A stretch of DNA of 64,000 nucleotides from a virus (Duplodnaviria; Caudoviricetes): positions 64,001-128,000 of IMG/VR virus record IMGVR_UViG_3300050142_000050. One strand, 5' to 3'. The notes beneath the pieces were generated by a model. It searched no databases and was not told the origin of the DNA. It saw nothing but the letters and a program-made list of their open reading frames with translations. Of this stretch, positions 3,828 through 54,143 are shown in pieces. How positions within the stretch are numbered: the first letter of the stretch is position 1; each line of letters starts with the position of its first letter. The position numbers were made by a program, and so were the translations under genes.

Positions 3828-4442
3828 CTACGAGGCACTCGAGGCGATAAGCTTTCGCTCATACTCCTGAATGAGGACGGCCTGTTGTTGGTTTATTCGG
3901 CGCAATTCTTCGATCTGTACCGACAGAGGTGCGAGCGCCACTTTGTTCGCATCTCGAGCCGCCTGGATCACCTCATACTCCGACTCAGTCAGATAGACCT
4001 TACGGGTCGAATCCGACAGTACCGACGGAGGTGTCGATATACCCAGCTGTGACTGGATTAGATCGGTAGCTTGTTGGACGACCGGGAGGACGACCTGTGT
4101 GTTGGAGAAGGCTCCCATCGGGAGTACCAACATGAGATCGTAATATTCACGGACCGTGGGGTCGGGCACTAGCCGGAAGAAGGATCCCGGCATGTGGAGC
4201 AGAACATCGCTGTTGGATACTGACTTGAGAAGATAGACCTGATCATTCTTGATCGAAGGATAGTCCACGTCAAAGTCAGAACTCGAGAGACCTGCTCGTG
4301 TATAGATCGAATCGACGAAATTCACCCCCGAAGCTACCGCCGTACCAAAGGTCATCGTCGCCATGACGGTATAAATACCATCCAACGACGAGAACCTAGT
4401 CACGAACGAGAACTTACAGGTAGAGCCATTGTCTGGGGTCAT
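3828..4442 (-). CDS. Putative virion structural protein
   Basis: 204 aa with C-terminal coiled coil; overlaps upstream gene by 4 nt (ATGA-type coupling). Confidence 0.55.
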   Translation of the reverse strand: MTPDNGSTCKFSFVTRFSSLDGIYTVMATMTFGTAVASGVNFVDSIYTRAGLSSSDFDVDYPSIKNDQVYLLKSVSNSDVLLHMPGSFFRLVPDPTVREYYDLMLVLPMGAFSNTQVVLPVVQQATDLIQSQLGISTPPSVLSDSTRKVYLTESEYEVIQAARDANKVALAPLSVQIEELRRINQQQAVLIQEYERKLIASSAS

Positions 4443-5863
4443 GTAGCACTACCTTTCAGGCGGGTGTAGCAGTCCTTCGTGATCACGCAGAACTCATAGG
4501 CACCCACAACGAATCCGAAGAACTCAAAGAGGCTCTCAGTCGATTTCTGATAAGCCGACGAAGTCGTCTCAGCAAAGTCCAGAGCGAGAATCGCATTGAG
4601 ATGTGTGGAGAAGGCCTGAGTGTCAGCCAGCATATACTGGAAGTTGGCTTCCGTGGGCGAGAAAGCCTGATAGTCAGGGAACAGAGTCGCTGCCGACGAG
4701 ATTCCAGTGATGCCCGATAGTTCGGGTACGATTGTGGAAATCATGCGGTCGAAAGATACTGGCATGATCTCGATGTAGTCACCGACATTAGTCCAAGCCT
4801 TGGAAGCCATCACATCCTTGGTGTTATCGATCACCTTGGGTACATTGAGGATGTTCTGGAAGACTGTCTGACCAGGCTTGGTGAAAGTCTCATTCCACAT
4901 CGGGATGATGTAGAAGCGTCCTTCGATGAATAGACCGGGGATACGGAGACGCCATGCCGCTTCGGTCCCTACACCGCTTCCCAATACGGCTGCCTTAATA
5001 GTAGCGCGAGCTTCCACCATTCCAGGGACACGTCCCTTATAGAGGATCTGGAAAGGTACTGTCAACCGGTGCTGGGCACTATCGATTAGGACAACAGTGA
5101 ATTCAGCCGTACCCGTCGGTTGATCCAGAACGAAAGCAGCATTGGTGTTGTCATAGATCAGTCCACCACTCTGTCCAGCGACTGACAGAGCATTGCTGTT
5201 TTCAGCCAGGAGCGATCCTGAGAGCAAATTCTGATACGAGGTAGGCGGCACTACCTTGAGGACCGTCGTCGAGCTGTAGCCTGCCTTAAAAGCCGAAGAT
5301 TCGGTAAACAGGGTAATATCGAACTGACGAGTCGTCGAACCAGAAGGAAGAATGACCGAGAACCTGATGAAGTCAGGAATCGATACACTCATCGTAGTAT
5401 TCGACTGGAGGTATACCGTGTCCGTCACGATGCGGGTGGAGAGTTCCAGTGTACCTGGGACATAGATCGCATGCGTGTCAGTATCGGTATTGAGATAGGT
5501 CTCCACAGTTGATACAGGGATCGACGATGAATAGCGGAAAGCCGCACGGTCGATCAATTCGAAAAATTTGGATGCGATGTTCTGCGGGAGTGCATTGACT
5601 ACATCGATGAATGAACCGAATACTTCGCTGTCGATGACAACACTGGGTGCGGTATTCGGGGCCCAATTGACATCACGCGACGACGGTGAGCGTGTGTCGT
5701 CGATAGTCGTCGGTTGGTTGAAGAAGGAGAGTGTATTCTGGGTCAGAGTACCGATTGCGGTAGCATCACCCAGAAGGATGCCGTTGAAGGCTTTTCGTTT
5801 ATCAAGAAAGGCCTCGTCGAGGATAAAACCTTCGACTGCCGTACTGTTGGATGAGGTCGGCAT
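4439..5863 (-). CDS. Putative virion structural protein
   Basis: 474-aa ORF heading a coupled minus-strand operon. Confidence 0.55.
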   Translation of the reverse strand: MPTSSNSTAVEGFILDEAFLDKRKAFNGILLGDATAIGTLTQNTLSFFNQPTTIDDTRSPSSRDVNWAPNTAPSVVIDSEVFGSFIDVVNALPQNIASKFFELIDRAAFRYSSSIPVSTVETYLNTDTDTHAIYVPGTLELSTRIVTDTVYLQSNTTMSVSIPDFIRFSVILPSGSTTRQFDITLFTESSAFKAGYSSTTVLKVVPPTSYQNLLSGSLLAENSNALSVAGQSGGLIYDNTNAAFVLDQPTGTAEFTVVLIDSAQHRLTVPFQILYKGRVPGMVEARATIKAAVLGSGVGTEAAWRLRIPGLFIEGRFYIIPMWNETFTKPGQTVFQNILNVPKVIDNTKDVMASKAWTNVGDYIEIMPVSFDRMISTIVPELSGITGISSAATLFPDYQAFSPTEANFQYMLADTQAFSTHLNAILALDFAETTSSAYQKSTESLFEFFGFVVGAYEFCVITKDCYTRLKGSAT

Positions 5864-5960
5864 GTCACTATTCCCTATGCCTAGATACTGACACCCTGGC
5901 GGTGGTCAATATTATCACCGATGGGGGTGATACCTTATGAGTTATTCATGAGGTGAGAAA

Positions 5961-6617
5961 ATGAGTCAGGAGTATATTACCCTCCAGAAGCCGGGGGTAG
6001 GTATCATGAACGATCGAGATCTGATCGGGAATCCGGATATGATCCGTCCATTCCAGCGAGTACTGACCCGATGGGGTGATGGTGGGAAGAAGAAGATCTC
6101 ATATGGACTCTCCTCGATGGGATATGACGTCAGCATGGGGCGTGACTATAAGCTCTTCACCCCCGAAGGTTTCTTCGCTAAGTGGAGGCGTCGTTTGCGT
6201 CGTTGGGTTGGGCTTTCACCCAAGGACGGCGATGTGATCGATCCTCACAACCTATCCAATGACTATTTCGTAGAATACAAGGATGTCGACTATATCGACA
6301 TTCCTCCCGGAGGGTATCTCTTGGGTCACACCAAAGAAACCTTCGATATGCCGGATGATGTACTGGCAGTCTGTTTTGGTAAGTCCACATATGCACGTAT
6401 CGGTGCGGTCGTGAATGTGACACCAATCGAGCCAGGCTTCAAGGGTCAGGTGGTTATCGAGATCACCAATGGTACGGAACGTCCCATCCGTATCTATTCG
6501 GACGAGGGTGTATCTCAGTTCATCTTCCTGCGGGCGAACAGCCCATGTCTCACGACATATGCCTCACGTGGTGGGAAGTACCAGAATCAATCTGGTGTAC
6601 AAGGGGCACTCGTGTGA
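5961..6617 (+). CDS. dcd: dCTP deaminase
   Basis: SYGLSSMGYDV, GKSTYARIG, TPIEPGFKGQVVIEI, EGVSQFIF and Y..RGGKYQNQ.GV motifs. Confidence 0.95.
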   Translation: MSQEYITLQKPGVGIMNDRDLIGNPDMIRPFQRVLTRWGDGGKKKISYGLSSMGYDVSMGRDYKLFTPEGFFAKWRRRLRRWVGLSPKDGDVIDPHNLSNDYFVEYKDVDYIDIPPGGYLLGHTKETFDMPDDVLAVCFGKSTYARIGAVVNVTPIEPGFKGQVVIEITNGTERPIRIYSDEGVSQFIFLRANSPCLTTYASRGGKYQNQSGVQGALV

Positions 6618-6624
6618 TATATAA

Positions 6625-6658
6625 CGATAGTGGGTGGGCACATGCCCACCCACTATCG
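6625..6658. terminator. Terminator hairpin between convergent genes
   Basis: CGATAGTGGGTGGGCA-CA-TGCCCACCCACTATCG, 16-bp inverted repeat. Confidence 0.85.
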
Positions 6659-6662
6659 AGTA

Positions 6663-6962
6663 TCAATGCGCCGGTTTATGCATTCGCCTCTGCACTTTGA
6701 GTAAGTGCACGTGTGCCATCTCCCTGGCGGCTGGTAGGAAGTATCGCCAGTTTGTCGGAGATGAACAGGAGGGTGAGACTGCACGTCGCTCGAGATAACG
6801 AGCAAGGTTCTCGATCCCACGATGATCTGTGGCTTTGGACACCAATGCGATGAACGTACAGTGTCGCGACCCTATCACCATAGCCAGGAGAAAGAGTGCA
6901 CAGACTAGTGCGATCAAGAGAGACATGATAGCGCTCATAACGGGGTCTCCGCATCCTGACAT
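6663..6962 (-). CDS. Hypothetical membrane protein
   Basis: N-terminal hydrophobic segment; ends at the terminator. Confidence 0.5.
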   Translation of the reverse strand: MSGCGDPVMSAIMSLLIALVCALFLLAMVIGSRHCTFIALVSKATDHRGIENLARYLERRAVSPSCSSPTNWRYFLPAAREMAHVHLLKVQRRMHKPAH

Positions 6963-7123
6963 CGCTGGTACTAATACGAGGTCAGGAGGTTAGAGGGGGA
7001 AGAATGCAGAACATTGCTATCCTGCACATGATGGTCTTCTCAAAGAGAGATAGATCGATGTAGTTTATTTAGATCTATAATGGGTATTACGTGTGACGAG
7101 GATTCTCAATGGAATCTTAGAGT

Positions 7124-7138
7124 CATATTACCATAGTG
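7124..7138 (+). promoter_or_regulatory. Putative phage early promoter
   Basis: CATATTAC-CATA-GTG, resembling the phiKZ early consensus TATATTAC; upstream of the gene at 7198. Confidence 0.65.
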
Positions 7139-7197
7139 GATCGGGACATCCAGTCCTTACCCCAACGAAGATCCATTTTACAAAAGGAACACTAGCT

Positions 7198-7734
7198 ATG
7201 TCTTCCGTCCTCAACATTCGTCCTGTACCGCAGATCGGTCAGAAGGGTCGTTTCCATCCTGATACCATCCATGACCTGGGTGCTGATCATCTCAACGTCC
7301 TCTCGATCATGGTCGATGATGTCGCTCTGGCTCTGACCATCTTCCTCGAAGGTGACGGCAAGCGTCTCCACCCTTCCGACTATTCGGTCGTCAAGCAGAT
7401 GGAAACCGAACTGCGTTTCTTGAGTGGTCGTGCGACAGCTCGCTTCGACCTCGAAATGCGTGAAGGCGACAAGGGTCGCAAGCTCGACATCCGTGAATTG
7501 GTCTTGGGGATCTCCGATACTTCGAAGGAGATCAGCACCGGCCGGTTGGTCACCACTTCGACGGGCGTGTCCTACAACCAGTCGCTCCAGGATGTTTCGA
7601 TTGCATCCATCTTGGCTCTGCGTCCTCTGGTTGAAGATACCATTCTCAAGCTGACCGAAGCGTCGGTGTATGAACCCGCCCCTCGCACGGGTATCCTGGG
7701 TGGATTCATCGGACTGTTCGATTATACCCGGTGA
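7198..7734 (+). CDS. Hypothetical protein (probably early)
   Basis: AAGGA RBS before ATG 7198; C-ending codon bias. Confidence 0.75.
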   Translation: MSSVLNIRPVPQIGQKGRFHPDTIHDLGADHLNVLSIMVDDVALALTIFLEGDGKRLHPSDYSVVKQMETELRFLSGRATARFDLEMREGDKGRKLDIRELVLGISDTSKEISTGRLVTTSTGVSYNQSLQDVSIASILALRPLVEDTILKLTEASVYEPAPRTGILGGFIGLFDYTR

Positions 7735-38828: not shown

Positions 38829-38904
<76 letters not shown>

Positions 38905-40692: not shown

Positions 40693-43600
40693 TTATCCGT
40701 TGAAGAAGATATCGACGAGCTTTGCTTTTCCGACCTCCATGTTCCTCTCTGCGATACCTAGGAGAGGACTCTTCACGATACGGTTGATGATCGAGGTGAG
40801 TGAGAACAGAGCACCCACAGGTACACCCGATTCCGTATAGTGCGATTCTTCGGAAACGTGTGAGATGATTGCCTTATTGGCATTACCGAAACAGAGCTTA
40901 TCTCCAGCTTCAGCCGTGAGAGTCTCTTGGATCATGTATTCCAACAAAACAGTATCCTCAGTGAACTCGATACCCTTGTAATAGGTACCAGGTGCCACAT
41001 ATCCAGGACGCTCAGAGATCTTCGAACCTGGGATAGCAGAGAGAGCAGCGTTCTGTTGACGCTCTTCTTTCTCATATACCTTCAGGATCGATTTGAGGCT
41101 GTCTGAGAGCTCATTTCGGTCACAGGCGTAAAGTATGCGCAGCTTACTTACAGTGCCTGTATAGCCCGCTGTAGGCGTCTGACGACTAAGCTTAGCCATC
41201 AGGTCCAACTTAGACTGCGTCTGGTAGAGTTCAGTCTGCACCATGACGTCATCGCTGATCACACATAGAGGAGTGGTCGTATCGACATGATCACCAGGTT
41301 TGACAGTCGATATGAGGATGGCATTCTTCTGAGTGACCACTGGACACTGGTGAGCAGGCGTCATATTCAGACGATTAGCCATAGCGCGAGTGATCTCGCA
41401 GGCGTCTTCGTGATTACTCCCTTTTTCACACAGAGCCACCGTTTCGATGATACCATGCTTGAACGTCACTTGCTTGGACATCGGATCGGGTACGAAGAAC
41501 CCATCGTTGTAGATGAGGATATCTCCTTCCTTGATCTTCTCTCCCACATGGACATTGACCTTCCTTGTTTGGAGGAGGAATGCCCCTGAGATCTGCGAGT
41601 AAGCATCCTTGTAGGAATAAGACTTCACTTCACCAGGAGTAGTGGTACCGATCAGTTCCAGACGGATGTAGTAGAGACAGCTCTCGCTACCATCTGAGAG
41701 AGCTTTCACCAACTGACTCTGCTTACGCACCAAATCACGATCAGGGATACCATCCACCGAATCACATCGTAGACGAGATACCACCTTACCATAGGTGGAA
41801 TTCGTCAGAGCGAAGATACCGTTGGCTGGATAAGAACCCAGTGACCGCTCGGTGACCAAGATACCGACGAAGTTGTGATCCTTGCGATACTTGTCGATGA
41901 TGGGGTCGGAATAAGGAAGAGTCAGCTTCCGCAAAGGATCGATAGGCTTATCAGCATATCGGACCCGCAGTACCTTAGCTTTCTCATCGATAGACTCGAC
42001 TACGCCATCTGCTTCAGCAGCGATAGCGAATGTGTCACTGACCAGATGAGGAAGAACCGCATCATACCCAGTACGCACAGAAGCTGTCTCACCATCTCCA
42101 TGGTTAGGTACATAGTGAGAGATCTGGATGCTCAGGTAGGAAGCACGCTTACCATCGTCCGTGGTACCACCAGGCATCACGTTAGTACCGATGGCGAGCA
42201 TCTGAGGAGCTTCTAGCTCATCACCCTCCTTATACGCCTTAGGGATACCGTGGACGTTGTCGATGTTAGGAGATGCCGACAGATAGGAGGTGATACCTAC
42301 CTTACCAGAGTCAGGTACAGCATCAGAGACGATACCTAAACCATCCTTGGGGTAGATACGAGACTCCTGTGTGATAGCATCCGCAGATCGACCGCCACGA
42401 CCCGTGAAGGTGTAGTTAGCAGACTGTTTCACTTCATGGATTGGATTGATCGTGTCGTTGATCGCCACAGTAGCATCCTGGACGATCTTCTGGAAGACAT
42501 CTTCAGGATTGATCGAGAATGACTTCTTACCATTGGTACGACGCCACCTGGAGAATTCCTTGAAGATAGACTCATAGACGATCCCATTCCACCGTTCAAA
42601 CTTACGGAAGCGGTGGTTAGCGATAGACGCCGTATCGATCGCGTAATAGTCGGTGACCATCATGTTTGCACGGAGTAAGAGAGCTGACCACACGGTCGGC
42701 TCGCTCATATCCCGCAGGACGGTCTCGGTGATGGGATCAACAAAGAAATCGACGAATTGTGTAACCGTCTGGATAGTCCCAGGCTTCATCTTCTTGGACA
42801 CCAGTACCTTTGTGTAAGGAGCTGGGAAGTTCAAGTCCTTGAAGTTGATATCCTTGAGATCAGCCCAAGTCAAACCGGCTGCGATCAAAGACCGCTGGAG
42901 GGGATATCGGTTAAAGACCAAGAAACCATCAGCGAAGCGGATCGAGATATCATCGATCCCGATCACGGGTCGGTTACCACTCGAATAGAAACGATACTGG
43001 AGATTGATCTTCTTGAACAGATTCTCCAGACCCATCTCATATCCCAAGGTGAATACCAGAGGGATCTTCTCACCCGGGAAACTGACGAGCGTGTATTCAT
43101 TAACCTGCTTTTGGAGACCAGCCTCACTACCCAGTACATCGACCAAGAGTTGGTTGAAGGACTTCCAATGAGAAAGCTCCTCACCCTTGTGCGATACTTT
43201 ACGAATGGAGTTCTTAAAGTCCCAGAACAGGAGCTCCATATCACTCGTGATACCGACAAAGATACCAAACTTCGATGACAGAGATGTCGCCACCTTTTGG
43301 ATAGCCGACATCCGATCAGTGATAGGTGCACCATCCTGACCGAAGTAGAAGGTCATACCTCCCACAGTGATCTCAGTGAAGCCCTTACTGATCGCTGAAT
43401 AGTCATAGGGGAGAGGCTTTACGGGATCTTCAGCCTTACCCACCTGAGCAGTGAGCATACCTTCTGCGCGCAGTTTCAGGATATGAGCGATGATCACGTG
43501 TTCGAAACTATTACGCTTCGATTCCACACGTGATACGAGCACCTTCCCGAAGTGCGAAGAGAGGGATACTTCACTATCACTGATCTTACAGATCGGAAGA

Positions 43601-45303
43601 GTGACAGCCTGGCGAGTCAGGATATACTCAGTACCACTGATCGTGATCGTACCATCCTTCGAGATGGTAGGACGAGAGAACTTGATGGTGTGAGACCTAC
43701 CATCGATATCCCGCATGGACACCTTGTAGGTGGTCGTCTTATCCATCTCAGTGCTGTGATGTTCTTCCTCGATATGAGTGATGAACAAACCATGCTTAGC
43801 CGTAGAAGCCAGTACCTTCGCCAGATCGGCATGGTACATCTTCTCCTGATAGGCCTTATCGATAGCCACCAATGTGGACTGCTTGTGAGACTCCTCAGGA
43901 GCTCCTGTCAAGAAGTCCATCTTCTTGGGCTTAAAGCTCTCAGGAGGCTGCTCCTGGATCAGCTCACTCAAAGTCTTACCACCGATGGTTACATTGAAGT
44001 GATTGTCCACTAGCTCTCGTTTACGAGCTTCCTTCTTGGGTTCGACAGCCACCTTCTCAGCGACCACCTTGTCCACATGCGTACGGATGTGATCTTCGAG
44101 CTTAGTATCCTGCTCACCCAATTCGATCGGTCTTACCACCACCTGCGATACAGGAGTGGTATGGTCGTCATGGAGATAACCACCAGCAGCATCAGCTGGA
44201 TCATGCTTTACCGCGAACTTGTCTTCTTTGGGGAGCTCTTTGACCTTCTCCTCGATAGGAGCACTCGTCTCACTGTCGATGATACCCTGCTCTTCGATCT
44301 CACCTGTCTCTTCATGAGGATCAGTCTCCATATCGATGAAGTCACCACTGGGATGACGCAGTGTCATGAAGTGTGTGTAAAGCTTCCCAAAGAAGCCAGG
44401 GTCATTAGAGAACTCGATGATGTCACCCAGGTTATAGATGACTGCCTTCCTACCCTTGTACAGGACGATGTTGATCACCTTAAGGACATCCGTCGGAATT
44501 CGCTCCAGGAGCGACGAGGAGCGCAGGTCCCGTAAGGATGGGTGATCCTTACCCAAGAGCTTAAGATCCGTCTTATACGGCGTCACATTCAACCTACGGC
44601 TACGTCCTAGGACATATCCCAAGATATGCACCAAAGGAAACAGCGTGGGATCATGACGCAGTTTAGCCATGGTCGAATTCGACAGCTCTTTTGCAGCTGC
44701 GACAAAAGCAGCCTTCGTCGTCGTGCCCTCATTCTGAGGTAGGAACAAAAAGTGCTGACATCCAGTACCGATCGATTCGATCGAGTTCAAGATAGTGCGG
44801 AAGATCACATCGAACTTGCGATACTCCTCATTGACACCCGGCGTCTTGAGATACATAATCGGCGAATAGTCGACACGCGTGATCGTCCCAGGCATGGTCC
44901 CGATAGTGCGAGGTACCATGATCTTCTTATAGTCACGGTGATGCTGATACCAATAACTGATACCCGCCATCATCGGAGTAGGACGGAAGACCAGATTCTC
45001 CTTCACTGGGAGAGGCTTCGAATGCTCATCTGCGATCTGATTGTAGATCAGGATATAGCGAGGAGCCTTAGCCTCATCGATCGGACTGAAGTGAGGAGTA
45101 GGGAGACAATCACCCTCAGGTTCGAGAGTCTCCATATTTCCGATAGTGTGGACCACCGACCCGATAGGCATGGCCAGCTCTGTGAAGTCATCGATCTTCT
45201 TAGGAGCCTGTCCTATACGCCGGGTATGAAACATCGTGTAGAAGCGCTGGTAGGAGATGCGCATAGCCTCCATACCCAGCCCGGTAAAGGGGTTAAAGTC
45301 CAT
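40693..45303 (-). CDS. Virion RNA polymerase beta-like subunit (phiKZ gp178-like)
   Basis: 1536 aa; beta-type motifs SDAVPDSGKVG, DDGKRASY..IQISH, NHEDACEI and GDKLCFGNANKAII; synteny with beta' and tape-measure genes. Confidence 0.9.
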   Translation of the reverse strand: MDFNPFTGLGMEAMRISYQRFYTMFHTRRIGQAPKKIDDFTELAMPIGSVVHTIGNMETLEPEGDCLPTPHFSPIDEAKAPRYILIYNQIADEHSKPLPVKENLVFRPTPMMAGISYWYQHHRDYKKIMVPRTIGTMPGTITRVDYSPIMYLKTPGVNEEYRKFDVIFRTILNSIESIGTGCQHFLFLPQNEGTTTKAAFVAAAKELSNSTMAKLRHDPTLFPLVHILGYVLGRSRRLNVTPYKTDLKLLGKDHPSLRDLRSSSLLERIPTDVLKVINIVLYKGRKAVIYNLGDIIEFSNDPGFFGKLYTHFMTLRHPSGDFIDMETDPHEETGEIEEQGIIDSETSAPIEEKVKELPKEDKFAVKHDPADAAGGYLHDDHTTPVSQVVVRPIELGEQDTKLEDHIRTHVDKVVAEKVAVEPKKEARKRELVDNHFNVTIGGKTLSELIQEQPPESFKPKKMDFLTGAPEESHKQSTLVAIDKAYQEKMYHADLAKVLASTAKHGLFITHIEEEHHSTEMDKTTTYKVSMRDIDGRSHTIKFSRPTISKDGTITISGTEYILTRQAVTLPICKISDSEVSLSSHFGKVLVSRVESKRNSFEHVIIAHILKLRAEGMLTAQVGKAEDPVKPLPYDYSAISKGFTEITVGGMTFYFGQDGAPITDRMSAIQKVATSLSSKFGIFVGITSDMELLFWDFKNSIRKVSHKGEELSHWKSFNQLLVDVLGSEAGLQKQVNEYTLVSFPGEKIPLVFTLGYEMGLENLFKKINLQYRFYSSGNRPVIGIDDISIRFADGFLVFNRYPLQRSLIAAGLTWADLKDINFKDLNFPAPYTKVLVSKKMKPGTIQTVTQFVDFFVDPITETVLRDMSEPTVWSALLLRANMMVTDYYAIDTASIANHRFRKFERWNGIVYESIFKEFSRWRRTNGKKSFSINPEDVFQKIVQDATVAINDTINPIHEVKQSANYTFTGRGGRSADAITQESRIYPKDGLGIVSDAVPDSGKVGITSYLSASPNIDNVHGIPKAYKEGDELEAPQMLAIGTNVMPGGTTDDGKRASYLSIQISHYVPNHGDGETASVRTGYDAVLPHLVSDTFAIAAEADGVVESIDEKAKVLRVRYADKPIDPLRKLTLPYSDPIIDKYRKDHNFVGILVTERSLGSYPANGIFALTNSTYGKVVSRLRCDSVDGIPDRDLVRKQSQLVKALSDGSESCLYYIRLELIGTTTPGEVKSYSYKDAYSQISGAFLLQTRKVNVHVGEKIKEGDILIYNDGFFVPDPMSKQVTFKHGIIETVALCEKGSNHEDACEITRAMANRLNMTPAHQCPVVTQKNAILISTVKPGDHVDTTTPLCVISDDVMVQTELYQTQSKLDLMAKLSRQTPTAGYTGTVSKLRILYACDRNELSDSLKSILKVYEKEERQQNAALSAIPGSKISERPGYVAPGTYYKGIEFTEDTVLLEYMIQETLTAEAGDKLCFGNANKAIISHVSEESHYTESGVPVGALFSLTSIINRIVKSPLLGIAERNMEVGKAKLVDIFFNG

Positions 45304-45359: not shown

Positions 45360-45389
45360 ATAGACTGGGGCCATGTGGCCCCAGTCTAT
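45360..45389 (-). terminator. Terminator hairpin at the end of beta' exon 2
   Basis: ATAGACTGGGGCC-ATGT-GGCCCCAGTCTAT, abutting the exon-2 TGA. Confidence 0.75.
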
Positions 45390-45565
45390 CAATCCAAACT
45401 ACCAGGTTCTGTATAGGTGAGATTGTGCAACCAAAGATCGATAAGGTAAGTACTCCCACCTGTCACGAACCTTAGGTCAGTATTGATCACACTCGAAATA
45501 CCACTGAGGTAATCCCGGTTCTCCTCATTGGCATCTTTAGTGTACAAAAACTCGATGGAAACTTT
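45389..45565 (-). CDS. Virion RNAP beta'-like subunit, exon 2
   Basis: Reads KVSIEFLYTKDANEENRDYLSGISSVINTDLRFVTGGSTYLIDLWLHNLTYTEPGSLD*, in frame with exon 1 after splicing. Preceded by an intron-terminal G. Confidence 0.85.
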   Translation of the reverse strand, partial: KVSIEFLYTKDANEENRDYLSGISSVINTDLRFVTGGSTYLIDLWLHNLTYTEPGSLD

Positions 45566-47373
45566 CCTGATGTTCAGCAGTGCTCGTTAGACACTACCCG
45601 TCCTTTCTTCCTTAGGAAAAGAGGACTGCTTACACTCTCGTGTAAGAGCAGACTATATCTTCACCCTCTCGTTGGAGTAGGGTGCTCCCCATTTCGGGAT
45701 CACTCGATCCCTACACCGTGGCAGGTGGTTAGTCGTTGAGCACATCGCATGACCTATAGAGGCTTTAGCGACTTCGCTGCGGATTTTCTCTATCTCTGTA
45801 ATTTTTACCATCTCGATGTGATTAGCATCGCCCCTCACTATCTAGTTTCCTAGGTGGGTTGGTATACAGAGCCTAACGAGACGTTCCCGCAATTAGAGGA
45901 GATTCACTTTACCATCTCTGATAAAGAGGACATCGCTTATTGCATAAAACACGACTTTACTTCAATGACAGGAAACTTCTTTAGGTCCACATGCTGGATA
46001 TTCCAACTCCTCCAGCGCATGGTACCATCACTCGACTTAAGCATCCGGGACATTACCGCCGGATCACAACGCTTCTCTCGATCCTCATTACACCACTCCG
46101 TCACACTGGTGTAATATCTCACTACTCCATCGCCCCCTACGATATTCAGAGGACGATCCGTCGCCTTAGTCCGATCGAAGATATCTAAGACCTCCTCAGG
46201 ATATACAGGCCACTTCACGAGCTCGCCTTCTTCTGCGAGGCGGAAACCCATACCCTTCCAAGGTATGACTGTCTCATACATCAACAGACGATCGAGCACA
46301 TAGTGACGCATCCCATACTTCACCGCTACCTCAGAGCGATTCCCCATGGCGAGCACTCGATGGGTCTTGAGATCCATCACCACGATTGACTTATCGGCCT
46401 TATCGCCGATACGACTCGGATTACGAGACAACTCCTCCCAACTGCGCGGATCATCAGCCTTCTTAAAGATATACCCATGGAAAGGCTTCCCATCAGTAGT
46501 CCTCCGCTCCACCGCCTGGTGAGCACTTTGAGGAGACACACCGAGGAGCCTCGCCATCTCATGGTATCCACCCACCACGAACTCCTGCCCATCACTCAGC
46601 CTCCTGAGGAGTATCTTCTTCTGAGTCTCACCCCGCACACCATCAGTGAAGGCATGCATGTTGTTATCAGAGTAAGTAGCCCACTCGAGATTTCGGATGG
46701 TGTTATTGAGCTTATTGGAGTCCTTATGGTTGACCGTAAGATGTTCAGTGTCCAGAGGATGATCCAAGAAGGTGAGAGCCAACAGTCGATGGAGACGTTG
46801 TTGCTTACCATCGATTTTAACAGTAGTCTCCATATATCCGTTTCTCGGAGAGACACCGACGGGATACTTGTCGACGTACCGTCGCAACTCAGGACCACGT
46901 TCTACAATCCTTATTTCCAAGGACACCCCAGGTACCTTGAACCACACTCCCAGTGGGATGTGTTCTCCTATCCTCTCACGGACTCTATACTGACGATAAT
47001 CCCATTCGAGATTTTCTATCCGGAGATCATCACGATTCCCATTTCGGAAAGACACCGACAACCACTCAGGATCCTTGTCGGTCGGCTTATACGTTATCAG
47101 CATCAGCCTATCGAGCGGGTGCGAAGAAGGCTTGTGACTTTTACCACGGATCTTAACTGCACGTCGACAGTGTCGACTGATGTATTCTTTCTGAACCTCT
47201 CCGGTAGATATCAGCGTGACGACTGCATCTTCGGAGATGTCATATAGAGGATTTGTTGGAATTCTCATAATTCACCTAGTTGTTATTTCACCATATAATA
47301 CTAGGTAAAATTTTCACACCTTTTTACAAGGGTATTTTCCTGTCAATTATCGTGTTCTATGCACTAAGGTCAA
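45566..47373 (-). mobile_element. Group I intron (about 1808 nt) with an HNH ORF
   Basis: Minus-strand core: P AATTGCGGGAA (45884-45894), Q AATCCGCAGC (45776-45785), R GCTCAACGACTA (45730-45741), S AAGATATAGTCT (45650-45661). 5' exon ends in U; intron ends in G. Confidence 0.92.
45937..47268 (-). CDS. Intron-encoded HNH homing endonuclease
   Basis: LHRLLALTFL...VNHKDSNKLNNTIRNLEWATYSDN motif, a degenerate upstream copy, and C-terminal NUMOD-like segments. Confidence 0.92.
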   Translation of the reverse strand: MRIPTNPLYDISEDAVVTLISTGEVQKEYISRHCRRAVKIRGKSHKPSSHPLDRLMLITYKPTDKDPEWLSVSFRNGNRDDLRIENLEWDYRQYRVRERIGEHIPLGVWFKVPGVSLEIRIVERGPELRRYVDKYPVGVSPRNGYMETTVKIDGKQQRLHRLLALTFLDHPLDTEHLTVNHKDSNKLNNTIRNLEWATYSDNNMHAFTDGVRGETQKKILLRRLSDGQEFVVGGYHEMARLLGVSPQSAHQAVERRTTDGKPFHGYIFKKADDPRSWEELSRNPSRIGDKADKSIVVMDLKTHRVLAMGNRSEVAVKYGMRHYVLDRLLMYETVIPWKGMGFRLAEEGELVKWPVYPEEVLDIFDRTKATDRPLNIVGGDGVVRYYTSVTEWCNEDREKRCDPAVMSRMLKSSDGTMRWRSWNIQHVDLKKFPVIEVKSCFMQ

Positions 47374-48900
47374 ATCGCCGTCATGATCGGCACCCATAGC
47401 TGCCATCTTACTCGGATGGACCATGGCTGCATCCATGAATGCATTCTTGAGAATTGGGTATTGCTTCAGGGTGGTACTGAAACTACCACCAGAGACCAAG
47501 TCCACCAACTGCACCGCTCGGGACGGTGTCGTCGATACCACATGGACTCTACCTGGATATGTAGAACCCTGTTCAATCACCGGATAACGGGTGACTAGAC
47601 AGTGTGCTCCATTACTGCTCACCTCAGCTACGATGTAAAGCATCTCAGCATAGGTGATAGGTCTGATCTTCTTCTTGTCGATAGGACGAGGCCATCCGTT
47701 CTCCAAGTCGACGATACTGCGGAACAGTGCGATTTCATCACCCTCGTCATATACGAAGAGGAGTGCATATTTGTCACCTGTTATATCCTCGATCATGACC
47801 GGTGAACGTCGTAGTTCCACGTTTCGGAAATCGTTGAAGATATCCTCATTACCAGAGGTGGTCATCCACTTATCACGGACTGGCGAATCTACTCTGGTGT
47901 ATACCAGCTCGAAAGTCTTTGGATCACTCAATGCCACATTGGTAGTGGTCTCGGCTTTGAAGATAGGAGTCGAGAAGATCTGTCGCAGATTGAAGGCTGC
48001 GATAGGAGTGAGTCCCTTGACAGTCTGGTAGATACCCACCATCACGTCGTCAGCTCCCAGGAGCTGTACGTCTTCTGGGGAGTTGGCTAGGAAGGGAGCA
48101 GCGGTGATCACATTACGAGTACCACCAGCCACATGGCGGCGTGCGAAGTTGCTCTGGATGAAACCGCGCTTACCATCGAGGAAGTTCTCGATATATTCGT
48201 AGATCTCCTGAGCTTTGGACTGGAGCTGCCATCTCACTGGATCATAGAGAGGTGAGTTGGATCCACGAGGGATAGCTCTGGTGTACATCTGTAGGGAATT
48301 GTAGAGCTTGTTGATCTCATCCTGGATCAGTCGACCAGAACTATCATTGGCGATATCACGCAGACCTGCTGGTATCACGATATGCCGATCAAACTCTGTG
48401 ATCTTCTGATACTTGAGGATCACCTCGATGTTTTCATCTCGTTTGCTAGAACCAGTGCGAGGGAACTCGATTTCATGGAAGTGACTCATGAAGAAGGAGT
48501 AGCCAGTATCGGCTTGATCATTCTCAAGAGGATCACCTGTGAACCGAATGAAGTCATTCTTGACACGATCAAAGATCGCATACTCAGCGCCAGACATGAT
48601 GTCCTTATAGAGGCGCTTGAGCTTACAGAGGATGGCGAAGATCTTGGGATGGAGGATCCTGGTACCCAGATCGATCCACCCGAATTTGAGCATGCGATCA
48701 GGGGAACCTACTTGTCCGAAGATCTCTTCGGAGTAAAGACCTTCTGCATGGTAGATAGAAGTCGATGGTTCAAATACCATCGAGCTAGTTACCTGACGAG
48801 CTCTCTTCTCATGGATGAACTGATTGACATCCATGATTCTGATATTGACAGGATCATCGATTGTCCCGATATCCCCAGGTAGACGTTCGGTAGATACCAT
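47374..48900 (-). CDS. Virion RNAP beta'-like subunit, exon 1 (phiKZ gp180-like)
   Basis: GLYSEEIFG, GKRGFIQ, TRYP and the catalytic GADHDGD at the exon end. Spliced product is about 567 aa. Confidence 0.9.
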
Positions 48901-49967: not shown

Positions 49968-52900
49968 ATGGATCCGTCGGATTCCACACCTTCAACGAGC
50001 ATGGACTCCGAACTCTCCCAAGTACAAGTAGGACCTAAAGTAAGGCCTGAAAAGTACACGGGCGGTCTGGCTAAGTCTCATGCTAAACCCCACGCTGACG
50101 AACCTGCTCGTTCAAAGAGTATGTCAACCATCGACCGATTGGTCCAGAATGGCATCCTCCCCAATTCCAGACAGCGCCGTGATCAGTTCGGCGCCAAGAT
50201 GGATGCGAAGGACTCCTTTAAGATCAAGACTCTGACTCGTAAGCTCGAGCGTGAGATAACGATCCGGCACAAGACTGAGATAAACGATGGACCCTCGCAT
50301 ATGCGGGTACGTCGTTTCGACATAACCTCTCAGTCGATGCGGATGATCACGGCTAATGCTACTCTGGCAACACATCAGTTCCAGAAGACGCAGATGCTGC
50401 CTTATATGCGCAAGAGCCTGGCTCTGAGCTATAAGAAGGTAGAGATCCTCCGGGCAATCAATGCCAGTATCCAGACCATGCATCGCAGTAGTCTTGAGAA
50501 GCTCGAAGCTATCAAGATGAATACAGCAATGCGCGACGCAGGTAAGGGAGGCATATTCAAGAGGCTCAAGGACTCCGTCACTGATCGAGCTCTGTTCAGA
50601 GTAGGCGACAACATCGCAGCAGCGTATCTCGATCGATACGACCAGATGTATGTCAAGCATATCTCACCACGTCTCGCTCGCTTGGAGCAACTCTTCAATC
50701 GTGATGGTGCGAAAGGTACTGTCAACGGGGTAGGTCGTACCCTCCGAGGTACCCTCAATCGTCAGCGCGGTAAACTCCGCAATGTCAGTAACTCGACAGG
50801 TGACACCCATGGTAAGTGGACCAAGCGTGCGGCTGGTCTGGGTGCACGAGTCCTCGATACTGCCGTTAAGGTAGGTCAGAAGACAAAGCTTCCTGGTTTT
50901 GTAAATACCATCGCGACTGAATCTGTCAGAGATCACACTTCGGTGTGGGGATCACTACGACCTCTACAGACGAAGTTCGACCAGAACAAAGATGACGATG
51001 ATCTACATTCCAGCAATAAGGTCGTCGACGTCCTACAGCGCACTCGCGTCGACAATGAACGATACTTCGCGAAGTCTCTTACCCACTTAGCCAATCTCGA
51101 CCGCATGGTCTCTGATATCCGCAATATGGGTAAGAGTGGTATCGGACCATCCTCAGACATGACGCCTGACTTCGACCTCGGTGGAGATAAGGGAAGACCC
51201 AGTGCTTCACCTTCACAGCCAGCACAATTTGGTCCTCCTAAGCCTGGTATGTCGGTACGTGCACGTCGTCGGTACGAGAAGGCGAAGAAAGACTTCGAAC
51301 AGCGTCAGCGTGGTACAGGTGGTGCAGCGAACATTCGTAATCGCATCCACAGCGTCAACGAGACTCTCAGAGATCGTCTTGAATCCATGCGAGCCCTTCG
51401 CGAAGAACGCAAGGCTCAAGGGAATACCAAGAAAGAAGAATCTGCTGAGGATGCAGCGGCGCGTGAGCACGCTCGTGAGTTAGCAGCTGAGAAAGCCAAG
51501 GCTCGTCGTGAGCGTGAACTCGAGAAGAAGCGCATCCGCGATGAACGTCGTGCAGCTGCTGCCGAACGCACTGCTAAGGGTAAAGCTCGCAATGACTATA
51601 TCCAGACCAGTAAGGTCTCTGAGGCAACCAAGAACCGATTCAGAAACGGTTTCACCGAGACAGGTCTCAATGCCAAGAAACCACCCAAGGCTCCACGCAA
51701 GACGATAAAGCAACGAATCGGCGGTTGGGCTGCTTCTAAGTTCGAAGGACCTGGTGACGATTATGGTCTGCTAGGTAAGGCTTGGAACCTTTCATCGAAC
51801 TTGGGTATCAATCGTGCGACAGGTAGAGGCGCTCGTAAACTCGGCCGAGGACTCTGGAAGGGCACTAAGTGGGCCGGTAAGGAACTCGTCAAGTCGCCCT
51901 GGACCGCAACGAAAGGTGCATGGCGCGCCACAAAGGTCGCCGGTAAGGTGGCCGTCAGCGCTACCAAGACCGCTTGGAGCGTCGGGAAGACTATCGCTAA
52001 GTTGGGTAAGGGGGGTGTCGGTATCGGCCTCGCTGGTGCAGGCGTCAACTATCTGTCCGATAAGTATCTGACAGGTGGAGCCAAACGTGCTGGTAAGACA
52101 CTGGGTACGGCGATGGAGTATGGCTCCATCGGTTTCATGCTTGGTGGACCTGTCGGCGCAGCAATCGGTGCCTCTGCTGGTGTCCTCATCGAGAACTTCG
52201 ATGTGGTCTCCCACTATGCCAAGAAAATCGGTATCGACTTCGCAGCGATCGGTCGAGGTATCTCCAATGCAGCGTCCTATGTCTGGGAAGGCACTAAGGG
52301 TGTTGTCAAGGGGATGTGGACCGGTCTTGTAGGTCAGGATGCAGAGTACGATTGGACTGGTCGTGTTAAGAAGCAGGAGAAGCCATCCATCGTAGGTCGC
52401 ACCATCGGATTCTTCTTCGGTAGAGATGCCAAGAAGGATCGCTTCGGTAACATCGTAGATGCGGGTCAGACATCCGTATTCGGACACATTAAGAATGGTT
52501 TCACGAAAACCTTCTTTGGTGACAAGGATAAGGATGGTACGTTCAAGCCTGGTACCTCGATTATTTCGATGATCAAGGACAAGGCAGGTTCGATCCTCGA
52601 TACATTCTCACAGGCGCTGACAGGTATCGGCAACTCGATCGCCAACTCATCGGTGGGTAAGGCAGTCCAGACTGCTTATAACACCACAGCCGGTGCAGTA
52701 CAGCAGACAGCTGGGGATATCGTCCAGGGGGTACAAGGTGCCGTCGGGGCGTTTACCGGTCTGAAGCCTGGTCAGAAGGCGACACGAGCTGACCGCAACA
52801 ATAATCCGGGTAATGTGATTGCGAATAAGTGGACTGCTACACTACCTGGTTACGTAGGTAGTGATGGTAGGTTTGCTATCTTCGCTTCTCCCGAGCATGG

Positions 52901-54143
52901 GTTTGCGGCACAGATCAAAGTCATTGAGGGATATATCCGTAAGGGTACAAATACCCCACGGAAGATCATTTACAAATACGCACCTCCTCATGAAAACGAC
53001 ACCGGTGCATATGTCAACAACGTGTGTAAGTCTCTTGGGGTCAACCCCGACGAACCGCTACCTGTCGAAAAGGTGCCGGCTATGGCAGCAGCTATGGCTA
53101 AGATCGAAGGTTGGCATGGTGGTGTGGGTAGTAAGCCATCACCCGTCCCGGCCGCCGGTACCGGAACCACAGCGACTCCAGCTAAACCGGGTGCACCAAC
53201 AGCTGCTACTCCCGGTAAACCGGGATCTACCCCGACCGCACCGAAACCGACAGGTATCGCGGCAGTAGTAGCTACCAAGGGCGTCTCCTCGGTCATGGGG
53301 TCGGCTACTCCGTCTTCGACGGGTCCTACCACTGTGACTCCTGCTGCTTTTGCAGCTCTGAAGGATAAGCAGAAGGTAGGTGCAGCCAACTCGAATAACA
53401 AACCCACAACCGCTCCGGCTCAGACACCAGCGGCTAAACCTGCGGTACCTACGCCTAAGCCGGCTACCAATGACAACCGTCCTTCGGTGGCTTCCACATC
53501 CAAGCGAGGTGACGTCACTAATGCAGTGGTACCCATCCCTGTCCACTATGGTTCGGAAGAACCTTCATATGGGTCTGGGAATACACAGCAGAAGTCGGCT
53601 AAGCCTGCGGCCAGCAATGCAGCTGTCGTACCAGTAGCTTACGAGATCCCATCGTCAGTGTCGCCCAAGAGTGGTGCTGGCGACATCGGTACTCTCGTAC
53701 GAGCCCTGTTCGATAACACAGCTGCTCTGGAACGCAATACGTCTGCACTCACTGGTGAGCCTACCACTAAGTCGAAGACCATGGTGCCTTCTAACATGCA
53801 ACCCTCCAGGGTCGCTATGAAGAGTTCCACACCAGTCGTGAAGACATCGAGTGTGATCTCACCTTCAGTGGTCAATAAGACCATTCCGACAGTAGCTACA
53901 CCTGCTCCTACGACCACACCGACACCTACTACACAGATAGCAGCGGCTACCCCAGCACCTGCATCATCTGTTATCTCGAAACCTGTCACCCCAGCAGCGA
54001 CTCCCGTCTCTGCACCAGCGCCCACACCTGCACCTGTAGCTCCATCTGGTCCCCAGATGGCATTCGCCCCACCGGTACCTAGTGCGAGTAGTGGGAACTT
54101 CCCATCGCTTAAACGAGCCGGTAGTCGATCAGGTATGGCTTAA
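49968..54143 (+). CDS. Tail tape-measure-like protein with a lysozyme-like domain (phiKZ gp181-like position)
   Basis: 1391 aa; helical charged and Gly/Ala-rich regions; RNNNPGN...FASPEHG...KYAPPHENDTGAY domain; P/A/T-rich C-terminus. Confidence 0.75.
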   Translation: MDPSDSTPSTSMDSELSQVQVGPKVRPEKYTGGLAKSHAKPHADEPARSKSMSTIDRLVQNGILPNSRQRRDQFGAKMDAKDSFKIKTLTRKLEREITIRHKTEINDGPSHMRVRRFDITSQSMRMITANATLATHQFQKTQMLPYMRKSLALSYKKVEILRAINASIQTMHRSSLEKLEAIKMNTAMRDAGKGGIFKRLKDSVTDRALFRVGDNIAAAYLDRYDQMYVKHISPRLARLEQLFNRDGAKGTVNGVGRTLRGTLNRQRGKLRNVSNSTGDTHGKWTKRAAGLGARVLDTAVKVGQKTKLPGFVNTIATESVRDHTSVWGSLRPLQTKFDQNKDDDDLHSSNKVVDVLQRTRVDNERYFAKSLTHLANLDRMVSDIRNMGKSGIGPSSDMTPDFDLGGDKGRPSASPSQPAQFGPPKPGMSVRARRRYEKAKKDFEQRQRGTGGAANIRNRIHSVNETLRDRLESMRALREERKAQGNTKKEESAEDAAAREHARELAAEKAKARRERELEKKRIRDERRAAAAERTAKGKARNDYIQTSKVSEATKNRFRNGFTETGLNAKKPPKAPRKTIKQRIGGWAASKFEGPGDDYGLLGKAWNLSSNLGINRATGRGARKLGRGLWKGTKWAGKELVKSPWTATKGAWRATKVAGKVAVSATKTAWSVGKTIAKLGKGGVGIGLAGAGVNYLSDKYLTGGAKRAGKTLGTAMEYGSIGFMLGGPVGAAIGASAGVLIENFDVVSHYAKKIGIDFAAIGRGISNAASYVWEGTKGVVKGMWTGLVGQDAEYDWTGRVKKQEKPSIVGRTIGFFFGRDAKKDRFGNIVDAGQTSVFGHIKNGFTKTFFGDKDKDGTFKPGTSIISMIKDKAGSILDTFSQALTGIGNSIANSSVGKAVQTAYNTTAGAVQQTAGDIVQGVQGAVGAFTGLKPGQKATRADRNNNPGNVIANKWTATLPGYVGSDGRFAIFASPEHGFAAQIKVIEGYIRKGTNTPRKIIYKYAPPHENDTGAYVNNVCKSLGVNPDEPLPVEKVPAMAAAMAKIEGWHGGVGSKPSPVPAAGTGTTATPAKPGAPTAATPGKPGSTPTAPKPTGIAAVVATKGVSSVMGSATPSSTGPTTVTPAAFAALKDKQKVGAANSNNKPTTAPAQTPAAKPAVPTPKPATNDNRPSVASTSKRGDVTNAVVPIPVHYGSEEPSYGSGNTQQKSAKPAASNAAVVPVAYEIPSSVSPKSGAGDIGTLVRALFDNTAALERNTSALTGEPTTKSKTMVPSNMQPSRVAMKSSTPVVKTSSVISPSVVNKTIPTVATPAPTTTPTPTTQIAAATPAPASSVISKPVTPAATPVSAPAPTPAPVAPSGPQMAFAPPVPSASSGNFPSLKRAGSRSGMA

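Follow-up and report, generated by a model that had tools for sequence, protein, structure and literature searches.

Group I introns and inteins in essential genes of jumbo phages are well documented (e.g. PMC12880540), and the described elements most similar to the one reported here interrupt virion RNA polymerase (RNAP) genes of phiKZ-like phages. In phiKZ, insertions bearing an HNH open reading frame (ORF) are found at gp56, gp72 and gp179 (PMC11512511), and papers citing Mesyanzhinov 2002 attribute to that study the prediction of the gp180/gp179 intron (PMC11512511, PMC10914365). As annotated, phiKZ gp180 ends with ...LGAD and is followed by the gp179 HNH ORF, a group I core scoring 92 bits against RF00028 and the sequence FDGDTVSFNAV... 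before gp178 (L003, 3194-4636). Here, we analysed a stretch of 64,000 nucleotides (nt) of the IMG/VR virus record IMGVR_UViG_3300050142_000050 (positions 64,001-128,000 of the record; hereafter the window, whose coordinates are used throughout), in which the gene for the virion RNAP beta' N-terminal subunit is interrupted by a group I intron at 45566-47373 on the minus strand.

The window intron shares with phiKZ gp180/gp179 its host gene, its gene order and an HNH ORF situated on the 5' side of the core and overlapping the guide; the two ribozymes are related, being alignable throughout and ending in the same 3' hairpin and CUGAACAU.A.G tail. However, the phiKZ intron is inserted after the first Asp of the motif (GAD|FDGD), 12 nt upstream of the window's DHDGD|K, and its guide is GUCC, matching GGAU. 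The two endonucleases share ~20% identity (357 vs 443 amino acids (aa)), and the host proteins, both in spliced form, share 33% identity over 542 aa (E 5e-81). The first-pass annotation of the window, made from its letters alone, had spoken of a hidden second exon. The exon exists, but an arrangement of this kind is not generally hidden: phiKZ gp180/gp179 represents the same gene, interrupted by an intron related to that of the window.

In Vibrio phage VP4B (NC_042136), the same gene is interrupted at the same insertion point (DYDGD|), and its pieces, FDJ61_gp015 and gp016, are annotated as two 'RNA polymerase beta subunit' coding sequences (CDSs). The VP4B intron has a group I core of 51 bits, is ~0.5 kb long and carries no ORF, and its host protein is 35% identical to that of the window; its 3' junction is less certain, as the alignment began at residue 10 of the query tail. 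PhiPA3 gp210 is an I-HmuI-like nicking HNH endonuclease that disadvantages an intron-less co-infecting phage (Birkholz et al. 2024, PMC11620839). Its intron (gp211/209) and that of 201phi2-1 (gp273/274) are, like the window's, group I introns at active-site aspartates of a virion RNAP gene, but both lie in the beta gene (the phiKZ gp178 homolog), which is uninterrupted in the window. The 201phi2-1 intron was for this reason rejected as a same-gene case, and the endonuclease-mediated competition between phages that the first-pass annotation had invoked has been shown for the PhiPA3 intron, in a beta rather than a beta' gene (PMC11620839).

Further parallels are the SPO1/SP82 DNA polymerase intron with I-HmuI and the T4 td, nrdB and sunY introns (subgroup IA2), phage group I introns at conserved sites of essential enzyme genes, which share with the window intron P7.1/P7.2, a nicking-type HNH endonuclease and an in-frame stop shortly after the 5' splice site, but have a different host gene. 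The ORFs of these introns sit in P6a, P8 or P9.1; that of the window sits in the P1 loop, within a long-range stem of ~35 bp.

The intron directly follows the catalytic motif of beta'

The first exon (47374..48900, minus strand; 509 codons) encodes the virion RNAP beta' N-terminal subunit of the phiKZ gp180 family. It matched PHROG 2986 ('RNA polymerase beta subunit') with an E value of 4e-141, the tblastn matches of beta' covered 314 jumbo phages, RAY gp163 ('vRNAP beta' subunit 1') among them, and the structure match was the AR9 RNAP beta' (PDB 7S00/7S01). Its place in the gp180 family is supported both by homology including the DxDGD Mg-binding motif (alignment, PHROG 2986) and by its neighbourhood, with a divergent lysozyme-domain tail protein upstream and the virion RNAP beta subunit downstream.

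Exon 1 ends with the Mg-binding motif, GADHDGD, and its final base is T47374 (U-1). The minus-strand ORF (47347-48900) terminates in ...MGADHDGD-LTLVHRTR-stop, the exon-1 frame closing eight codons inside the intron at a TAA (47349-47347); this ending, already given in the first-pass annotation, was confirmed in the ORF list and the sequence. Relatives of the 517-aa ORF, which number in the hundreds, have a bimodal length distribution (~505-520 aa and ~560-567 aa). After D.DGD, the long relatives continue with K(V/C)S.E(Y/F)...(D/E).N.E....YL.S..SV(I/L)NTD(L/M)RF.TG.S.YL.DL.LH.LT, matching exon 2, and P0005, P0012, P0015 and P0020 read DHDGD-K(V/C)S.E(Y/F)...SVINTDLRF.TGGS.YLIDL.LHNLT.

Excision of 45566-47373 (1808 nt) fuses GAT to AAA in frame (...GADHDGD|KVSIEFLYTKDANEENRDYL...) and leads into exon 2 (45389..45565, minus strand; 58 codons plus the stop at 45391-45389, delimited by homolog alignment). 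Exon 2 encodes KVSIEFLY...INTDLRFVTGGSTYLIDLWLHNLTYTEPGSLD, the segment found after DxDGD in all intact homologs, and aligned to the C-terminal 50-58 residues of 57 of them. The excision had been proposed in the first-pass annotation with U at the 5' splice site and G at the 3' end, and it stands: the bases are T47374 and G45566, and the frame is restored. GGCGAT|AAAGTT is the sole junction at which D|K stays in frame, U occupies position -1 and the intron ends in G.

The spliced beta' of 567 aa, with GADHDGD fused to KVSIEF..., shared 68% identity with intact P0005 over 559 aa and 61-63% identity with P0012, P0015 and P0020, each time with 0 gaps and with the alignment crossing the junction. 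The check named in the first-pass annotation, that intronless homologs continue after DGD with exon-2-like sequence, thus gave a positive result in these four proteins. The intact gp163 of Erwinia phage RAY ('vRNAP beta' subunit 1') was 34% identical to the spliced protein. The beta' subunit would thus be annotated as 567 aa long, not 517 aa; the 517-aa product of unspliced RNA would be without the last 58 residues, which are conserved in every intact homolog. Judging from orthology, the beta' product would be packaged in the virion.

Directly 3' of the exon-2 stop codon, an 11-bp G+C-rich hairpin (45362..45387, minus strand) was read from the sequence. The first-pass annotation had placed a terminator after exon 2. 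The hairpin is there, but it has no U tract (no T run in the DNA), and the terminator scan made no call at 45387-45362.

Ribozyme core and intron ends

The intron (45566..47373, minus strand; 1808 nt) was delimited by Rfam, by the gap-free alignment of the spliced product and by five relatives, and shows features of subgroup IA. Its core, comprising P2-P9 with the P7.1/P7.2 hairpins and the conserved AAGAUAUAGUC (P7 3' strand), lies at 45629..45968 (minus strand; RF00028 and RNAalifold). There, Rfam RF00028 matched over its full length (model positions 1-253) with 75.2 bits (E 2.9e-17), compared with a gathering score of 50 bits, and the P/Q/R/S elements that the first-pass annotation had placed at 45650-45894 fall inside this match. 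By the Rfam E value, and with exon 2 shared by 57 intact homologs, the arrangement far exceeds chance expectation.

Comparison contigs came from six fetched truncated relatives, and one more relative came from IMG/VR; of these, five (L090, L092, L093, L094 and L011) extend into exon 2. In all five, the intron starts directly after the GAT of DGD, with T preceding, and its last base is G, followed by an AAA or ACA codon that opens an exon-2-like tail. The window intron likewise has the ends of a group I intron, U as the last exon base (T47374) and G as the last intron base (G45566). The Rfam score and the same boundaries in five relatives bear out the claim of a group I intron directly after DxDGD.

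RNAalifold was run on the post-ORF part of eight related introns, namely the window intron, the five relatives at the same insertion point (site B), phiKZ and the non-virion beta' intron of the same genome. It returned 68 pairs, 51 of them with compensatory changes on both sides, and the helices supported by covariation are P2, P4, P5, P5a, P6, P6a, P7, P7.1, P7.2, P8 and P9. Between P7 and P3', compensatory changes support the pairing of the P7.1/P7.2 hairpins (alignment columns 225-240 and 244-259), which indicates that the intron belongs to subgroup IA, the common phage type. At the 3' end (45566..45628, minus strand), peripheral hairpins (P9.x) are followed by the tail CUGAACAUCAGG and the terminal G45566, a layout kept in relatives. 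The end consists of a hairpin with a conserved UAACGA loop and then CUGAACAU.A.G, common to phiKZ and the relatives with the terminal G in the same position; this hairpin and tail show compensatory changes in phiKZ, L090, L092 and L094, and G ends every intron.

A predicted long P1 extension would join the two ends of the intron

All eight related introns have (A)GUC(C/U) right next to P2 on its 5' side, and the window copy is G45931-U-C. We propose this GUC (45931-45929) as the internal guide, in which G45931 would lie opposite U-1, followed by U-A and C-G pairs to the exon A and G. Beyond the guide, the first intron bases are predicted by RNAduplex to pair with the end of the endonuclease ORF. 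The 5' strand of this extended P1 spans 47336..47373 (minus strand), with intron positions +11..+25 (47363-47349) and +29..+38 (47345-47336) paired, and the 3' strand, which includes the guide, spans 45929..45975 (minus strand), as placed by guide invariance and the duplex calculation. The segment 47363-47349 pairs with 45955-45941 (15 bp), 47345-47336 pairs with 45975-45966 (10 bp), and shorter helices lie nearer the splice site. The duplex has an energy of -38.2 kcal/mol, compared with a shuffled mean of -16.3 (z -6.6).

Equivalent duplexes of differing sequence were obtained for L090 (z -7.2), L094 (z -5.2) and L011 (z -4.7), with weaker ones in L092 and phiKZ. In the ORF-bearing introns, the first ~40 intron bases pair with the ~50 bases preceding the guide; where the intron has no ORF (L008, L093), the guide closes a simple P1 hairpin. 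The final 13 codons of the endonuclease ORF fall within the 3' strand of the extended P1, and the endonuclease gene would thus be looped out of the stem. An early P1 candidate, AAGUCGU (45957-45951) with GCGAU|UU, was dropped in favour of the family-conserved GUC adjoining the P2 5' side; GUCGUGUU is better accounted for by the stem of the extended P1. When P1 partners were sought along the ORF without restriction, nothing rose above noise.

The intron encodes an I-HmuI-like HNH endonuclease

The ORF in the P1 loop (45937..47268, minus strand; 443 aa) encodes an I-HmuI-like HNH homing endonuclease with Pfam, PHROG and PDB matches, and has its own ribosome binding site (RBS), AGGTGA, 5 nt upstream of the ATG. 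Pfam HNH_3 matched in two stretches with 44.3 bits (1.4e-11; cut-off 24.8 bits), and PHROG 59 ('HNH endonuclease') matched with 6.9e-32. The sole solved relative is I-HmuI (PDB 1U3E, E 2.7e-5), a nicking homing endonuclease encoded by the DNA polymerase intron of SPO1. The motif VNHKDSNKLNN...NLEWATYSDNNMH is kept in four of the five orthologous intron ORFs compared, that of L090 being missed by the search pattern. As its motif is intact and largely conserved among orthologues, the endonuclease is probably active.

The protein is far longer than I-HmuI (443 vs 174 aa), and the family matches are confined to residues ~132-290; the ~130 N-terminal and ~150 C-terminal residues may be DNA-binding modules. 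A sigma-70-like match (TTGACC, 16 nt, GATAAT; 10/12) at 47373-47346 (minus strand) begins exactly where the intron does, ahead of the endonuclease ORF. It is probably a chance match: the regional match count was no higher than in shuffles, and transcription by the phage's own polymerases is expected.

Splicing and alternative explanations

We consider it very probable, from the sequence evidence above, that the element is a functional intron capable of self-splicing, that its junction is GGCGAU|AAAGUU and that full-length beta', hence an active virion polymerase, depends on its splicing. The first-pass annotation had arrived at the same dependence, which we infer on good grounds. The primary transcript would fold into the ribozyme, with U-1 (47374) paired to G45931 of the conserved GUC guide adjoining the P2 5' side, while the long P1 extension would join the intron ends and loop out the 443-aa HNH gene. 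Guanosine-initiated splicing would then excise 45566-47373 and ligate GGCGAU to AAAGUU, so that spliced mRNA would yield the complete 567-aa subunit and unspliced RNA the 517-aa product. By analogy with I-HmuI and PhiPA3 gp210, the endonuclease may introduce a nick close to the DxDGD codons of co-infecting relatives whose alleles lack the intron, and repair after the nick would copy the intron in. The analysis establishes the core of the ribozyme and its covariation, the intron boundaries, the restored frame and the family of the endonuclease; splicing itself, the exact P1 register and the endonuclease target are predicted, and a part in phage competition is suggested by analogy.

Several points weigh against this reading. 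The exon-side P1 at the family-conserved guide has just 3 bp (GAU/GUC) with an internal loop adjoining, a second G (45955) could likewise pair with the exon end, and inspection of the sequence for a P10 between guide and 3' exon found no convincing complementarity. With the short exon pairing, the loop and no convincing P10, the P1 register is to be taken as a model. Moreover, a long-read transcriptome of phiKZ yielded no spliced reads for the predicted introns under the conditions of that study (PMC10914365); splicing of such elements is thus documented less often than assumed. Other work treats phiKZ gp180 as containing DFDGD, which needs exon 2 (PMC10612078).

It is very unlikely that the gene is instead truly split, the ribozyme a dead relic and the 58-residue tail translated alone, e.g. 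from TTG 45547, into a small subunit of its own. The ORF list does include a TTG-initiated ORF of 52 aa at 45389-45547, RefSeq annotates the VP4B pieces as separate CDSs, and jumbo-phage RNAP genes are divided elsewhere (PMC7598289). However, the core is full-length and well over the Rfam threshold, its helices are kept via compensatory changes, and each of the six site-B introns retains U-1 and the terminal G. The reading frame runs on without a break precisely at D|K, a TTG start would lose the conserved KVSIEF residues, and no well-spaced RBS precedes exon 2.

Also very unlikely, and slightly more so, are other junctions within the same intron, such as a 5' splice site after CACGAU (47349) pairing with GUCGUGUU over 8 bp, which would leave LTLVHRTR and extra residues after DGD. 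AACACGAU and GUCGUGUU do form a perfect 8-bp helix with a terminal U.G pair, and LTLVH loosely resembles QMAVH, the sequence after DFDGD in bacterial beta'. Yet, with the terminal G45566, a junction after 47349 makes a UAA stop, and an insertion after DGD occurs in no intact homolog. The intron-encoded tails after DGD also vary freely among relatives (LTY, LTFG, none, RN, VTFV), and the 8-bp helix is better explained within the extended P1 stem, which relatives form with other sequences.

An assembly chimera or a misjoined contig, conceivable for a metagenome-assembled viral genome, can practically be dismissed: the whole stretch lies in one 39-kb contig without differences, independent contigs of other runs tile it, no joint falls at the intron borders, and relatives from unrelated samples have the same architecture.

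The sequence was in fact identical in independent contigs from many metagenome runs, and the element is therefore not an assembly artefact. For an intron-less allele, the contigs of four DNA runs contained no joint at 47374/45565, a result of little weight because contigs drop rare variants; the two joints seen in these contigs both trace to a single contig of low identity, which belongs to a different organism or to another copy of the intron.

The catalytic loop of beta' is occupied repeatedly in relatives

The region had no megablast match in the phage collection, and the nearest isolated phages share ~35% protein identity. Among the 119 best homologs (P0005-P0123), 57 are intact and 23 end within a few codons after DxDGD, the window's site. 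A further 37, including phiKZ gp180, end after the first D, and two (P0082, P0122) end after DxD. There are thus three nested insertion points inside five codons of the beta' catalytic loop. More distant IMG/VR relatives have a frame that continues past DFDGD into an intein-like insert and resumes at TVSFN.../TVNW...: L031 (~5890-7500) has a LAGLIDADG_3 domain of 42 bits and weak Intein_splicing matches, L015 (~5960-6900) is a weaker case in which the third Asp reads N before the insert, and L013/L042 also belong to this group. The beta' catalytic loop is a crowded landing site.

An ORF of 440-449 aa follows exon 1 in five of the six fetched relatives, with HNH_3 on record for four. Relative to the window, the endonucleases are 43-48% identical and the host exon-1 proteins 59-64%, a pattern that would fit a long-resident element evolving faster than its host gene and not a recent transfer. 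In L093, the site-B intron (5034-5425) is ORF-less and 392 nt long, and unrelated minus-strand ORFs separate exon 2 from the beta gene. The ORF-less site-B introns of L093 and VP4B (L002, ~4438-4920) suggest loss of the endonuclease with retention of the ribozyme.

Genomic context and other introns of the same genome

The virus record is 249,638 bp long and ~89% complete (IMG/VR), and the stretch is present in leaf-litter metagenome runs. The gene order corresponds to phiKZ gp181/gp180/gp179/gp178, with a divergent lysozyme-type protein, beta', the intron and the beta-like subunit. The virion RNAP beta-like subunit gene (phiKZ gp178 family; 40693..45303, minus strand) is uninterrupted and encodes 1536 aa (PHROG 3148, 8e-218). 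The lysozyme-type protein (49968..54143, plus strand; 1391 aa), divergent from beta', has long low-complexity Ala/Pro/Thr-rich stretches, and its equivalents in relatives carry Phage_lysozyme2, the phiKZ counterpart being gp181, a tail-associated endolysin. A tRNA-Thr with anticodon TGT lies at 38829..38904 (plus strand; Rfam 69.6 bits, ARAGORN).

Two ORF-less group I introns related to the window intron lie on the plus strand elsewhere in the same genome, outside the window. The first (G000:C1:41261-41627; L008, 4762-5128) is 367 nt long, scores 76.5 bits and interrupts the beta' gene of the non-virion RNAP at NAD|YDGD, where the insertion follows the first Asp as in phiKZ; it has a compact P1 hairpin, GGAU|UAA-CUA-UUAGUCC. 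The second (G000:C1:58658-58968; L009, ~4670-5030) scores 76.4 bits and splits the non-virion RNAP beta gene at ...KLTDKSGG|KGVSAVI...; the two ORF-less introns have nearly identical 3' modules. The KSGG|KGV site corresponds to the bacterial GNKGV motif. The interruptions of phiKZ at gp56, gp72 and gp179 appear to match the three genes interrupted in this genome, and such interruption is a recurrent pattern in this phage group (PMC11512511).

Discussion

The arrangement in the window is a familiar one in phiKZ-like phages and founds no new category. It documents a second insertion point, 12 nt from that of phiKZ, together with a related ribozyme and a diverged endonuclease. For annotation, gene callers truncate beta' inside its active site, here and in many relatives; of the 119 closest homologs in public protein collections, roughly half break off at the DxDGD motif.

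One possible interpretation, which we offer tentatively and by analogy, is that the DxDGD codons are a contested landing pad, with at least three nested sites for group I introns and one, after DGD, for an intein; these are filled in different lineages, and roughly half of the homologs sampled are occupied. A site shift of 3-12 nt, with a change of guide and a diverged endonuclease, could let an element invade or exclude alleles shaped by another, and the window endonuclease might then be a weapon like PhiPA3 gp210. If so, it would act on the catalytic codons of beta', which have not yet been described as such a target, in co-infecting relatives that are intron-less or differently occupied.

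The window intron adds a well-defined case to the RNAPs of phiKZ-like phages, which are riddled with self-splicing elements at catalytic motifs, and provides material for studying the site shifts of homing elements and their possible role in phage competition.

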